A stretch of DNA of 64,000 nt. Origin: an uncultured Desulfospira sp. GTDB taxonomy: Bacteria; Desulfobacterota; Desulfobacteria; Desulfobacterales; Desulfobacteraceae. Location of the stretch: contig OY760175.1 of NCBI GenBank assembly GCA_963663165.1, positions 5,216,001 to 5,280,000 of the forward strand, written 5' to 3'. Below, piece after piece: positions 43,948 through 50,572 of the stretch (positions within the stretch are counted from its first letter, which is position 1; each line of letters begins with the position of its first letter). A program made the translations under genes and the position numbers. The notes beneath the pieces are model-generated. The model was given only the letters and a program-made list of their open reading frames with translations. It did not search any database and was not told the origin of the DNA.

Positions 43948-45209
43948 CCTGTATCGGTATGAAACTAAAACCCCGGTTCTTCTTATCCATATTTTCGGTC
44001 ATCTCAGGGTTTGTGATTATCTGCAGCCTGTCCGCTTATTTTTATCTGGGGGTCAGGGAATTGAACAAAGTCGATGTCATCTGCCATGAGGCCGTTGGTA
44101 ACCTTAAAACCCTTCAGGTGCTGACAACCAACCTTTTGGTTACAAATGAGCTGGAGCAGGTCTATAGACATTGGAAAACAGCACAACATCAGTTCAAGAA
44201 CAAACTGGTATCCCTTAATGAATCTCCTTATATCCATGCGCTATTAACCACCGTAGAGCAGCAAAGCATCTTGAAGGCAATGGATACTTTCTGGGCCTTT
44301 ACACTGCAAAAGATTGAGCAGGTCAATAAAGACATTGGCACATTGATGAGCCGGAAGAATCCATCCAGAGACGGGCTTATATTTCAATTCAATGATACCG
44401 GTGATTATAACATCCTTAAATACCAGAACGACATTATCAGTGCCAAAACGTTTCTTGAATCAGAGTTTGAACACCGGCTGTCCACATTAATTTTTATTAT
44501 AAATCAGGAAAAAGCAGACCGGCTGCAAGGCCTGTTCTACCAAACCATGGTGGTGGGTTCAATCATGTCTTTGGTTGTTGTTATGATACTGAGCTCATTT
44601 CTAATTCGCCTTAAATCCGCTTTGGACAAACTCCATTCATCCATGGATATTATCGGGCAGGGTGATTTTTCAGAAAAACTTGAGATATCAGGGAACGATG
44701 AACTCAGCCAGATTGCTGTTTCCATCAACCGGACCACTGATAAGCTCAGTGACATGCACGTTGAATTAGAGCAGCGGATAAAGGAATTGTCTATCGCAAA
44801 GGAGAATGCGGACAGAGCGAATCGTGCCAAAAGTGCATTCCTGGCCAACATGAGCCATGAGATAAGAACGCCGCTTAATGCGGTAACGGGGTTTAGTGAA
44901 TTGCTCTCGGATATGGCAAGAGACGAAAAACAGATCAGCTATATATCTGTTATCGCCGGTGATCAAGGTCACCACCTTTGCCGGCAACGAACCGTCCCCA
45001 CCTGTGATATATTGACTTGTCAGGGCTTTTCGCAGGTGTAATATTTGAGGGAAGATACCATTCTCATTTGTATCGATAATTTGCAACACAATCAGCTAAA
45101 ACAAGATATATTAATGGAATAGCGCCATAGCAATCAATTTGGTTGCAGTAAAGCACCTGCGGTTGGAAGAACACGCTCACCAACAGGCGTCAATCCCGAT
45201 TTTGGAAGT

Positions 45210-45249
45210 AAAAAAGCCGGGTTTTATACGAGGACGTATAAAACCCGGC
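45210..45249 (-). terminator. Intrinsic terminator of the IS operon
   Basis: Perfect 15-bp stem gccgggttttatacg / cgtataaaacccggc with T6 on the minus strand, just after istB. Confidence 0.8.
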
Positions 45250-45265
45250 AGATGTGAAGAGATGG

Positions 45266-46054
45266 TTATTGGGGTATGGACTGGGGATTAGTAGTGTTCG
45301 TTGTGTTGGGACCTTCCGTTCGATAACTGAGTCCGTCCCGGATATTAATGATGTGAACATTGTGCATCAATCGATCGATAATGGCATGAGTTACAACCGG
45401 ATCTCCCAGAGTCGTCCCCCAATCCTCAAGACTGATTGAAGATGTGGCAATAAAGGCGGTATCGTCCTGGCAGACGCTGATCAAATCCAGCAGCAGGCTG
45501 GGATATTCCGGCTTTGTGCGGATACCGCCCACATTATCTATGATCAGAAGATCAAAACGGCTTAAGCCGGCGACCACCTCATCGGTGGATTCGTCAGCCA
45601 ATGACGTATACAGCATGGCCAGAAGTTTTTGCAGGGAAAAAAATCGAACCTTATAACCCGCACGGCAGGCCTGGTCGCCAAGGGCTGAGGCAATATGAGT
45701 TTTGCCCGTGCCGGTTTTCCCAAAAATAAGCAGCGGCTGCTTTCGATCCACAAAGGATAGCTCCATCAGATCTTTGAGGTGCTCTACATTCAGGCTTGGC
45801 TGGAAGTTAAAATCAAAGTTATCAAAGGTCATGTTTCTGGGGAAATCCGCTGTTTTTAGCCGCTTTTCAAGGGATCGGTGCTTTCTTGCCTTCATCTGTA
45901 CGTCCACGATGTCGGCCAGGAACGCCAAATGACCGGATTGATTTTTCTGCGCCTTGGCAAGGGCCTGCTCCAGATATTGGGCCATATCCTTGAGATAAAG
46001 CTTGCGCAGTTTCTTTTTAACCTGGTCGCTTAAGTTTTCATTCATCCTTGCCAT
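45266..46054 (-). CDS. istB: IS21 helper ATPase IstB
   Basis: FDFNFQP, GKTGTGKTH, AIIDRL.H, SYR. Confidence 0.92.
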   Translation of the reverse strand: MARMNENLSDQVKKKLRKLYLKDMAQYLEQALAKAQKNQSGHLAFLADIVDVQMKARKHRSLEKRLKTADFPRNMTFDNFDFNFQPSLNVEHLKDLMELSFVDRKQPLLIFGKTGTGKTHIASALGDQACRAGYKVRFFSLQKLLAMLYTSLADESTDEVVAGLSRFDLLIIDNVGGIRTKPEYPSLLLDLISVCQDDTAFIATSSISLEDWGTTLGDPVVTHAIIDRLMHNVHIINIRDGLSYRTEGPNTTNTTNPQSIPQ

Positions 46055-48360: not shown

Positions 48361-48775
48361 TTGGACCTCCGGCTATATTGAGGCTTTTTTGAAAAATCTC
48401 CCCGATTGAGATAAGGCCACTGCCGCCGGTGGGTTGCTTAGGCGCCTTGGACGTCGGTGCTGCAACATTTTTTTTGGGAAGGGAAAGCACTTGAAACAGT
48501 CGGCCGTCAAAGGCTATGAGATCTTTATCAATGAGCCCGTTCCTGGCCTGGATATATTCGTCCAGGCGGATGGCCGTCAATGAACAGATTTTATCATAGC
48601 CGTAATAAGACATTCCCTGACGATCTGCCACCATCACCAGAAAAAGGTACAGCACAAGCTCCTGGTGGTTCAGGCTGCCCCAATACCCCTGGCGGATAAA
48701 CCGGTGGCTTATCCATGCGAAACTGCCGTTAATTTTTCTAATTCGATGGTCCTTCAACGGTTCCTTGGTAATCAT
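48353..48775 (-). CDS. Winged-helix-like protein
   Basis: AAGGAGG RBS before MITKEP; LYLFL...AD..G.SYY...I...I....GLI...LI pattern resembles replication-initiator wHTH domains. Confidence 0.7.
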   Translation of the reverse strand: MITKEPLKDHRIRKINGSFAWISHRFIRQGYWGSLNHQELVLYLFLVMVADRQGMSYYGYDKICSLTAIRLDEYIQARNGLIDKDLIAFDGRLFQVLSLPKKNVAAPTSKAPKQPTGGSGLISIGEIFQKSLNIAGGPND

Positions 48776-49208
48776 TTTTACCCTCCTTGGAAATATAATG
48801 ATGAAAATTGTCGCCTGAATACCGTCTGCCATATCCCCGCCGGGGGAATTGATCTACAATCAGACCTTTTCTTCCGCAAAAACAGCAGCATGGATGGGAA
48901 GACGGAGGCGTTACCCGAAGACTATCATTGGATTTGGAGGGTGTTGAAGTGTCATCATCCACGGTTTTTTGAGAATTTCTTAATCTCCGCTCTTTTTCCT
49001 GCCGACGATGGGCTAACTTACCTTTTTCAGTTTGTCGATATTTCTTCTGGGCGTTACGGTGAGCTTCTCTTTGAGCAGTTTCCCGACAGGATTCACAGCA
49101 ATAAATCTGTCCACGCCAGCAACTGTGGCAGATATAAAAAATGCTGCCGCATCGTTTACACTGGATTTCTTTTAATAAAACGATCTCCACATTTTCCGTT
49201 CTTGCCAT
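48738..49208 (-). CDS. Cys-rich basic hypothetical protein (Zn-finger-like)
   Basis: CKRC, CHSC, YCCESC, basic helix, C-terminal CCFCG. Confidence 0.7.
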   Translation of the reverse strand: MARTENVEIVLLKEIQCKRCGSIFYICHSCWRGQIYCCESCRETAQREAHRNAQKKYRQTEKGKLAHRRQEKERRLRNSQKTVDDDTSTPSKSNDSLRVTPPSSHPCCCFCGRKGLIVDQFPRRGYGRRYSGDNFHHYISKEGKNDYQGTVEGPSN

Positions 49209-50572
49209 AAAACGGAAGCCGTGATTATATGAAGATGTTGGGTAGCTTCCGTATTTTATATGGATGTCTGCTTTTTGAAGGCTCGAAGCGGCCTACTTCG
49301 AGCCTTCCTTATTTTTCAAATCCATCCAAGAAACAAAACCAAATTCAAAGAAAAAAAGGAAGAAAATATATTTTTAAAATATGGGATGAAGAAGAGACAA
49401 AGTAAAAAGGATGGAGGCTTTGTTACCGGCTAAAGGGGTGGCCTGCTTCATCGCCATAGGTGGGGACGGTTACGACCGGCGGTAACAATATATCCGCTAT
49501 AAAGCACGCTGGGGAAAGCCTGCTGACACTGATCAATGACATTCTGGACCTGTCCAAAATAGAGGCAGATAAACTTGAAATAAAATATACCTATTTAAAT
49601 ATTAAAAAACTTCTGGATGAAGTGGAACAGATCTTTGCGGTCCAGTCGGCAGATAAGAATCTTTCTTTTATGATTGATATCAGCCAGGACCTGCCGGATA
49701 CCCTTCTGTTAGATGAGATCCGTTTAAGGCAGGTGCTTTTCAATATAGTCGGCAATGCAGTTAAATTCACACACAAAGGGTATATAAAGCTGTCGGCCCG
49801 TGTTGCCGTGAAAAAAAATGACCACATTGATATGCTGATATCGGTTGAGGATACGGGTGTGGGAATACAAGAGGATGAACTTGAATGTGTTTTTGATGCA
49901 TTTAAACAAAGCTTGGGGCAGGATTCATCAACATTCGGGGGAACCGGGCTGGGGCTGACGATTTCAAAAAGACTGGTTAAAATGATGAACGGGCAAATCA
50001 GGGTAAAGAGTAAACCCAATTCCGGAAGCGTATTTTCCATCACCCTGAAGGATGTTGAATTCAGCCGTGACCCGGTACGATCTGTCCGAGGGTATGCATG
50101 TGACCCGGTAAAATTCAAATCCCGTAAAATTCTGGTGGTCGATGATGCAACATCAACCACTGATTTTCTCAAGGCACTTCTTGGCAGATCAAACCTTGAG
50201 GTGCAAACGGCCGAAAACGGGAAGGAAGCTGTTGCCATGAGTGAACAAATTCTGCCGGCAGTCATATTAATGGATATCCGGATGCCTGTAATGGATGGAT
50301 TTGAAGCAGCCCGCATCATTAAATCCAATCCGGTTACCAGGCAGATCCCCATTATGGCTGTCACGGCTTCAAATCCATCCGAGAATTTTTTAAAACCCTT
50401 TGACTCAGTTTTTGATGCGTGGCTTTTCAAGCCTGTCAGAACCCATGAGTTGATTTCTCATTTAAAAAAGTATCTGCCGGTTGAACCCTTTGAATTTGAA
50501 AAGAAAAAGGCCCCATCCTCAAAATCAGAATGGTTTGATTATACGGAAGACAGTTTAAAATCCATATCTGAT

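Follow-up and report, generated by a model that had tools for sequence, protein, structure and literature searches.

A five-gene IS21-family insertion sequence with a portable 5′ cassette

Insertion sequences are usually taken to encode transposition enzymes alone, and the described members of the IS21 family carry, to our knowledge, istA and istB only. Why, then, should an IS21-family element of an uncultured Desulfospira sp. – found in what is called here the window, the whole 64,000-nucleotide stretch of DNA that was analysed (GenBank assembly GCA_963663165.1, contig OY760175.1, positions 5,216,001 to 5,280,000) – hold five genes? Sequence comparison shows that the element is made of two evolutionary units: a core of ParB-like gene, istA and istB, and a 5′ cassette in which a structured leader, bearing a pair of conserved hairpins, precedes the genes for a basic, Cys-rich, zinc-finger-like protein and for a winged-helix protein that is highly conserved. 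This cassette is portable: it is common to three recombinase classes and has been exchanged between IS21 cores that are otherwise nearly identical. Small proteins of a large family are tied here to three kinds of recombinase and pass from one kind to another as a unit.

Boundaries, genes and copies of the element

Five minus-strand open reading frames (ORFs), arranged head to tail and each overlapping the next, span 45266-49208 of the window. The element, its genes in the order of reading, and its ends are as follows.

44948-49487: IS21-family element, 4,540 bp, with TG at its start and CA at its end
48738-49208, minus strand: gene for a Cys-rich, basic, zinc-finger-like protein of 156 aa (probably 150 aa from a GTG at 49190)
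48353-48775, minus strand: gene for a winged-helix protein, 140 aa from the ATG at 48775 (the longest ORF reaches 48832)
47524-48360, minus strand: gene for a ParB/Spo0J-like DNA-binding protein, 278 aa (alignment to the Spo0J structure 1vz0; TIGR04285)
46038-47540, minus strand: istA, IS21-family DDE transposase, 500 aa (NF033546)
45266-46054, minus strand: istB, AAA+ helper ATPase, 262 aa (PF01695, NF038214)
45216-45249, minus strand: intrinsic terminator 3′ of istB, with a 15-bp stem, a 4-nt loop and T6
44941-44947: left copy of the target-site duplication ATATATC
49488-49494: right copy of ATATATC, pairing with the left one
44948-44960: istB-proximal terminal inverted repeat, TGTTATCGCCGGT, matching the opposite end at 12 of 13 positions
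49475-49487: zinc-finger-proximal terminal inverted repeat, whose reverse complement is TGTTACCGCCGGT
44990-45003: subterminal repeat AACCGTCCCCACCT (14 nt), with an inverted copy near the opposite end
49458-49471: that inverted copy of AACCGTCCCCACCT

The assignment to IS21 follows curated families: IstA scores 216.8 bits against NF033546 (cut-off 160) and also matches rve and Mu-transpos_C_2, and IstB scores 196.4 bits against PF01695 (cut-off 24.1) and 225.4 bits against NF038214 (cut-off 200). Downstream, istB follows istA immediately, with an overlap of 17 nt between their ORFs. At the other end of the operon, the winged-helix gene most likely starts at 48775 (140 aa), a start served by a GGAGGG ribosome-binding site and shared with most homologs, and for the zinc-finger gene the GTG at 49190 is the probable start, from which the protein begins MEIVLLK, as its homologs do.

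The subterminal repeats lie 43 nt from the element's end on one side and 17 nt on the other. In its own genome (6.74 Mb, one contig) the element is present in five copies, 100% identical across 4,540 bp and with all five reading frames intact, and each of them has distinct flanks and its own perfect 7-bp duplication (caatgga, atcattt, ctatggg, atatatc, tatcaga). When the window copy is excised in silico together with one copy of the duplication, an uninterrupted 695-aa hybrid histidine-kinase ORF results. The halves of this host gene occupy 43959-44947 and 49495-50593, the insertion falling just past the phospho-acceptor H-box region; since the gene is split, the window copy of the kinase is inactivated. 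The original prediction had placed the boundaries by the TG..CA ends, the multiple repeats, the ATATATC duplication and the restored host frame, all of which were reproduced, and had proposed that the 4.54 kb moves as a single unit, which is borne out by five identical copies with a 7-bp duplication each. Its five same-strand, overlapping ORFs ending at one terminator were recovered too, with two start codons revised. The window element is an active IS21-family insertion sequence that was recently mobile.

Read depth adds to this picture. In the contigs of two runs that fully contain the element, it is covered about five times as deeply as its flanks (739-782 versus 158, and 1165-1192 versus 212-260), which fits five chromosomal copies and no extra circular pool. 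Neither the joint 49487->44948, expected of a circle or tandem, nor the exact empty site was found in the contigs of four runs, from which rare forms drop out. In the run of a second organism (X4), a variant of the element about 95% identical has a depth near 320 and the window's exact flanks a depth of 13; many copies of a close relative are therefore present elsewhere.

A core and a cassette with separate histories

The division into two units is most visible against two close relatives (L022 and L023), in which IstA is 89-90%, IstB 88-90% and the ParB-like protein 82-84% identical to the window's; for the winged-helix and zinc-finger proteins the corresponding values are 59-60% and 58%. At the DNA level, identity to L023 is 61-71% over most of the leader and the first two genes (a single 150-nt bin of the winged-helix gene reaches 80%) and steps up to 83-90% past about 48290, roughly 70 nt into the ParB-like gene, so that the step reads as the signature of a cassette exchange. 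Along a series of relatives the identity of the ParB-like protein follows that of IstA (96, 97, 82, 84, 53, 54, 53, 29, 27%), while the winged-helix protein keeps to 53-62% regardless of IstA distance, with IstA falling to 27%. A tree of 48 winged-helix rows implies about 6-7 host switches between IS21 and tyrosine-recombinase elements, at least two of them forced by well-supported branches, in an alignment that is short and leaves many forks open.

Further evidence for portability comes from the same genome. A tblastn search with the five proteins places IstA and IstB in the five copies and in two distant IS21 elements, and the ParB-like gene in the five copies only; elsewhere, too, that gene has been seen only beside IstA/IstB. 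Homologs of the Cys-rich protein (42-57% identical) and of the winged-helix protein (46-58%) stand at the 5′ end of three other multicopy elements, which we refer to as sister families.

Family D (L018, 2833156-2837555): 8 copies of about 4.2 kb, with Cys-rich, winged-helix and three Phage_integrase genes
Family C (L017, 2716631-2721420): 4 copies of about 4.7 kb, with a different, 202-aa Cys-rich gene, a winged-helix gene and three Phage_integrase genes
Family B, Mu-like (L016, 1874114-1878473): 6 copies of about 4.25 kb

The three Phage_integrase matches in each of the first two loci have E values from 1e-17 to 8e-30. Family B opens with a Cys-rich protein (57% identity to that of the window); a DnaG-type CHC2 zinc ribbon takes the winged-helix position, followed by a protein of 184 aa, one of 582 aa that falls into no known class and, last, an ATPase. 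The 184-aa protein matches a Borrelia replication/partition family below its cut-off (E=5.9e-6), and the ATPase a phage 'DNA transposition protein' family (E=1.4e-11); the 582-aa protein, which has no noteworthy sequence match in Pfam, NCBIfam or the PDB, is called a transposase because of its position and its MuB-like neighbour. Outside the window, at about 5.50-5.59 Mb of the genome, lies a dense patch of mobile elements, with two of the five-gene IS21 copies, three copies of the family D trio and matches to distant IS21-type proteins within 90 kb. A trio element whose five proteins are 100% identical to those of family C was met in two metagenome-assembled genome bins, one of Phycisphaerae and one of Desulfobacterium (L040 and L041), either through very recent transfer or through mis-binning.

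How widely the cassette is shared was surveyed in species-representative genomes, where 323 winged-helix relatives were found; 80 loci were kept, and 44 remained distinct after identical proteins had been collapsed. Downstream of the winged-helix gene, 11 of the 44 have a ParB-like gene and IstA, five have IstA alone and three a ParB-like gene before the contig ends, making 19 IS21-type loci if those three are counted; a further 19 have tyrosine recombinases, one is Mu-like, four are cut off and one has nothing recognisable. Upstream, a Cys-rich gene is present at 37 loci (18 of the 202-aa type, 13 of the window's zinc-finger type and six of a third type, Cys-rich and basic, with 146-195 aa), six loci are cut off and one is unlabelled, the sister of the last (L084) having a Cys-rich basic ORF with YYRTKEGKGKK, much like the window's KYRQTEKGK. 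The winged-helix gene seems always to travel with a Cys-rich partner. Moreover, in every locus examined the cassette comes first in an overlapping operon, its position and orientation fixed and its end overlapping the start of the next gene.

These neighbourhoods bear on two readings in which the extra genes would do nothing for transposition. The first is that of a selfish hitch-hiker or addiction cassette – toxin-antitoxin-like, for example – riding at the head of the transposon operon, as two overlapping genes with their own conserved leader, repeatedly exchanged between unrelated elements, might do. We regard it as improbable: the position and orientation do not vary, the overlap with the next gene is kept throughout, of the 40 loci that extend far enough downstream, just 1 is without a recognisable recombinase, no toxin-like domain turned up, and none of the three accessory proteins matches the PADLOC defence families. 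The second, far less credible still, is that one IS21 copy once captured random passenger genes. It would suit the two-gene content mentioned above for described family members, but the five-gene order recurs at IstA identities of 25-31% and in many genomes, for instance on a Desulfatiglandales chromosome that supplies 27 of the 80 kept loci, with that order; the five frames are intact in five identical copies; and a related four-gene form exists on a Caballeronia plasmid, where the RefSeq annotation runs hypothetical – hypothetical (the winged helix) – istA – istB, without the ParB-like gene. The reach of these elements therefore extends to Betaproteobacteria.

A survey of 200 genomes sampled across the window's class, with the genome's own matches left out, gave 78 IstA matches (E<=1e-20) in 47 genomes and 98 matches to the winged-helix profile. 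A winged-helix match lies within 1.6 kb upstream and on the same strand at 53 of the 78 (31 of the 47 genomes), counts in which matches are not independent, multicopy elements recur and the sample is defined by similarity to the window's IstA. Most of the gaps between the two genes measure 40-280 nt, leaving no ParB-like gene, and one of 830-940 nt, the size of that gene, occurs at three non-own places only. The survey and the recurrent gene order contradict the passenger reading. Such IS21 variants often assemble as lone 4-5 kb metagenome contigs.

The original prediction survived its own refuting condition, in that most of the sampled IstA relatives have the winged-helix gene upstream, and its view of them as nucleic-acid-binding types rather than random cargo accords with conserved accessory genes whose order survives at such low IstA identity. 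Its idea of a single, three-gene IS21 module has to be divided: the ParB-like gene behaves as a partner specific to IS21 elements, whereas the zinc-finger/winged-helix pair, with its leader, is common to tyrosine-recombinase-trio and Mu-like elements and has been swapped. The congruence that it proposed to test is split along the same line, being seen between ParB-like protein and IstA and absent for the winged-helix protein.

The leader and a possible control unit

Ahead of the first gene lie two hairpins.

49277-49307: leader hairpin 1, a 12-bp GC-rich stem with a 7-nt loop, terminator-like
49212-49252, minus strand: leader hairpin 2, ACGGAAGC, a loop of about 25 nt, GCUUCCGU, then a U-rich tract

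From hairpin 1 to the start codon, leader DNA can be aligned across 14 elements of all three recombinase types, and in this alignment 93.5% of the cells are paired, a share reached by 0 of 500 shuffles. Helix 1 is 97% paired and has four pairs with compensatory changes; helix 2 is 88% paired, and where it varies, G-C mostly becomes G-U when read on the gene strand, a pattern in favour of a stem formed by the sense RNA. A search of 44800-49650 against Rfam gave no match at E<=1. A Shine-Dalgarno-like CGGAA(G) just 5′ of the probable GTG start at 49190 can base-pair with the 3′ arm of hairpin 2, GCUUCCGU, and does so in the minimum-energy folds of several leaders; from this complementarity and these predicted folds we infer only that an on/off translational switch is conceivable. 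For the window itself (49190-49255, minus strand), predicted folds switch between hairpin 2 and a structure that hides the ribosome-binding site.

Cassettes with the third type of Cys-rich gene are organised differently, having three direct copies of CTTGCAAAGATGGAC(G/T)CG, spaced 60-80 nt apart, just upstream of the winged-helix gene; the window cassette has no iteron-like repeats besides its two hairpins. Both IS21-type and tyrosine-recombinase-type elements have these repeats, each about 18 nt long, which are conserved irrespective of reading frame and are therefore signals in DNA or RNA, not peptide repeats. Examples are found at 6792-6880 of L075, 679-850 of L088, 498-665 of L087 and 162-320 of L046, partly within the 3′ end of the variant Cys-rich gene, and the repeats resemble a GCAAGA.CGGA stretch 5′ of the start codon in the window-type leader.

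We lean, at a little short of an even chance, towards a cassette that acts as a self-contained expression-control unit, with the ParB-like protein as an element-specific partner of IstA/IstB. The cassette would supply a promoter-proximal leader and two nucleic-acid-binding autoregulators, which would govern how strongly the first gene is transcribed or translated; through the overlapping reading frames, translational coupling would carry this level on to the downstream recombinase operon, and the net effect would be low transposition and an operon shielded from outside read-through. A control unit of this kind would account for three features of the cassette: that it works ahead of any recombinase, that non-coding DNA of its own comes with it, and that it invariably occupies the first position. 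The fold predicted for the winged-helix protein by AlphaFold2 is of a DNA-binding type.

The accessory proteins, rival readings and known systems

All three accessory proteins go by 'hypothetical' or generic names in public sources. The Cys-rich protein has eight Cys residues that are invariant or nearly so across 40 sequences, laid out as C-x2-C-x6-C-x2-C-x6-C-x3-C near the N-terminus and a C-x2-C knuckle near residue 108, with a basic helical hairpin between. It scores 13.7 bits against Prok-RING_2, below the cut-off, and its AlphaFold2 model (pLDDT 79) finds no convincing counterpart among solved structures (Foldseek E>=3.8, with YacG at E=5; VIA-align Z<=4.2), which does not make the fold new. 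An hhalign comparison between the window's zinc-finger family and the variant Cys-rich protein (E=0.013, 34 columns, 3% probability) is a mere hint of relationship.

The winged-helix family is large: an exhaustive profile search gave 1712 representative clusters at 50% identity, 949 of them with E<=1e-10, and a word-indexed search at least 1974 clusters at 90% identity. Stand-alone proteins of 80-260 aa make up nearly the whole of the 150 representatives listed, and RefSeq annotation and Atlas cluster names have the relatives as hypothetical. The window protein scores 19.2 bits against HTH_36 (PF13730; cut-off 25), a domain that some homologs carry in precomputed data. AlphaFold2, given 78 sequences, models the protein as a winged helix, residues 31-100 having block-mean pLDDT values of 80-94; the best Foldseek matches are the RepA_N initiators 5kbj and 4pt7 (E about 0.015), and the longest VIA-align alignments are to RepA_N 4pta (Z 7.7, 88 residues), primosome DnaB (Z 7.3, 86 residues) and DnaD N-terminal domains (Z 6.5, about 90 residues), all Z scores being 8.0 or less, in the range of a common fold. 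In a related genome (G006), at least seven copies of a winged-helix homolog each have one in-frame TAG, seemingly in the same place (e.g. C3:2851757-2852086); these could be a decayed element family or a case of stop-codon read-through.

It is these matches that bring in the main rival, a host replication or repair recruiter, which we consider unlikely. Here a DnaD/RepA_N-like winged helix and its Cys-rich partner would bring priming and replication to gapped insertion joints or excised circles, by attaching to a DNA structure there or to a primosome protein; DDE and tyrosine-recombinase elements alike could make use of such a step. The structural matches with the best coverage are of the kind it calls for, as are the weak similarities to HTH_36 and to a phage 'replication initiation protein' family (E=0.0047); Mu-like family B, with its CHC2 zinc ribbon in second and its sub-cut-off Borrelia replication/partition match in third position, points the same way; and a winged-helix protein far more conserved than the recombinases is what a conserved host partner would produce. 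On the other hand, the matches are all weak and within the generic winged-helix range, the depth of the element is that of five chromosomal copies with no excess pointing to replicating circles, and a recruiter would need neither the first position in the operon nor a conserved leader.

Several of the same observations weigh against the control unit that we prefer. The winged-helix protein stays at 53-62% identity over the span in which IstA drops to 27%, and it is equally conserved across cassette types whose leaders differ (hairpins versus three direct repeats), so that a conserved host partner fits at least as well as an operator borne by the element. Its longest structural alignments are to replication-initiation folds (RepA_N, primosome DnaB, DnaD), albeit with no Z score above the common-fold range, and the replacement of the winged helix by a DnaG-type zinc ribbon in family B favours the replication rival. 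In addition, a promoter scan found no sigma-70-like consensus promoter on the gene strand of the leader, overall counts matching the shuffled expectation.

The ParB-like protein belongs to the other unit. Its residues 25-183 align to the Thermus Spo0J structure 1vz0 (E=1.6e-6), with GFKRHRCA opposite GERRYRAA, and it matches TIGR04285 at E=4e-7, far below the cut-off; it has no Pfam match at E<=0.1. Homologs form at least 325 clusters, many with PF02195 and PF17762 and on contigs of 2-6 kb. The GERRxRA arginine patch and the ENxQR box are the CTP-binding motifs of ParB, Spo0J and Noc. Among 11 relatives of the window protein, only GQ...DG[FY][KL]R and the helix-turn-helix KS[WF]V.RRL are invariant, and the ENxQR box is not conserved; with only these stretches kept and that box lost, the window protein appears to be a degenerate ParB, for which classical, CTP-driven spreading is doubtful. 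No ParA-type gene was found within the element by ORF and Pfam scans; a parS-like site was not searched for. Given where the gene occurs and how it diverges, its product is most likely an element-specific DNA-binding partner of IstA/IstB, which could label the DNA of the element, either for synapsis or so that the element is not used as its own target.

The choice of targets falls to ATPases of the IstB and MuB types. A targeting or transposition-immunity module, which we judge slightly less probable than the recruiter, would have the accessory proteins steer insertion towards or away from particular DNA – the ParB-like protein by loading on the element and displacing IstB nearby, for example, or the winged-helix protein by marking preferred targets. 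It draws on the ParB-like protein's tracking of IstA/IstB divergence and its presence only beside these proteins, and on the partition-like DNA-binding gene that IS21-type and Mu-like elements both place directly before the transposase. Against this, the five duplications and their flanks have no obvious common motif, the cassette also serves tyrosine-recombinase trios, which have no ATPase, and the degeneracy of the arginine patch and the ENxQR box makes spreading doubtful.

A broader proposal, more speculative than the control unit on its own yet better placed than any of its rivals, is that leader, Cys-rich protein and winged-helix protein form a new kind of portable 'driver' cassette, which would couple at least three machines of unrelated mechanism – IstA/IstB, the Mu-like transposase with its ATPase and the tyrosine-recombinase trios – to one conserved input, the degenerate ParB possibly adding a layer of self-DNA marking in IS21 elements. 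The input might be either a switch of structured RNA and protein or a host replication factor read by the DnaD-like winged helix. Should the cassette be a regulator, it would be a reusable device for transposition control, through which such elements could be turned on or off; should it respond to a host replication factor, three transposition chemistries would be tied to a single host process. Full-text literature searches, the scope of which did not extend to supplements, ISfinder, TnCentral and TnPedia, found no description of these accessory genes; the three databases may already list such elements without an assigned function.

Set beside known systems, the element is an IS21 member in that IstA and IstB exceed curated cut-offs, istA precedes and overlaps istB, the TG...CA ends are accompanied by several subterminal repeats, and a 7-bp target duplication is found at all five copies. 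Described members measure roughly 2-2.7 kb and make target duplications of 4-8 bp. The window element differs in its 4.54 kb and five genes, with three more conserved genes and a 279-nt structured leader ahead of istA, the ParB-like gene among them following the divergence of the core. This last gene resembles those of ParB, Spo0J and Noc in encoding a probable N-terminal ParB domain and helix-turn-helix (by the 1vz0 alignment for the window protein, by PF02195 and PF17762 for homologs) and differs in that the GERRxRA equivalent is cut to DG[FY][KL]R and that it sits inside a transposase operon, without a ParA partner. With DnaD and RepA_N initiator domains the winged-helix protein has in common a predicted winged helix with an N-terminal extension and, below the cut-off, the weak HTH_36 match; unlike them, it stands alone at about 140 aa, with no replication domain or origin evident and scores in the common-fold range.

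For the proposed control function there are precedents in other insertion sequences. InsA of IS1 is a small transposon-encoded repressor. A preprint describes Arc, which is small and accessory in IS605-family elements, as a repressor of the promoter of the element that encodes it, and notes its association with diverse mobile elements (bioRxiv 10.64898/2026.09.24.754181). Like these two, the cassette proteins are small accessory proteins, DNA-binding by prediction, encoded within an insertion sequence and adjoining its promoter region. The folds have no relation to each other: Arc is a ribbon-helix-helix protein, whereas a winged helix and a cross-brace-like zinc finger are met here, and the present cassette differs from both Arc and InsA in comprising two proteins and a structured leader, with repression as a proposal only.

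Families C and D, finally, and 19 of the 44 loci from other genomes resemble RIT elements in having three consecutive, overlapping Phage_integrase genes, here placed behind the cassette. RIT elements, in the portion of the published description consulted, are about 3.5 kb long and contain ritA, ritB and ritC only (Van Houdt et al. 2012, PMC3414803). As an annotation marker, the cassette would flag the IS21 variants and may help to delimit RIT elements, the mechanics of which are unknown; compared with that same portion of the description, the present trio elements are longer, at 4.2-4.7 kb, and have two extra genes at their head.

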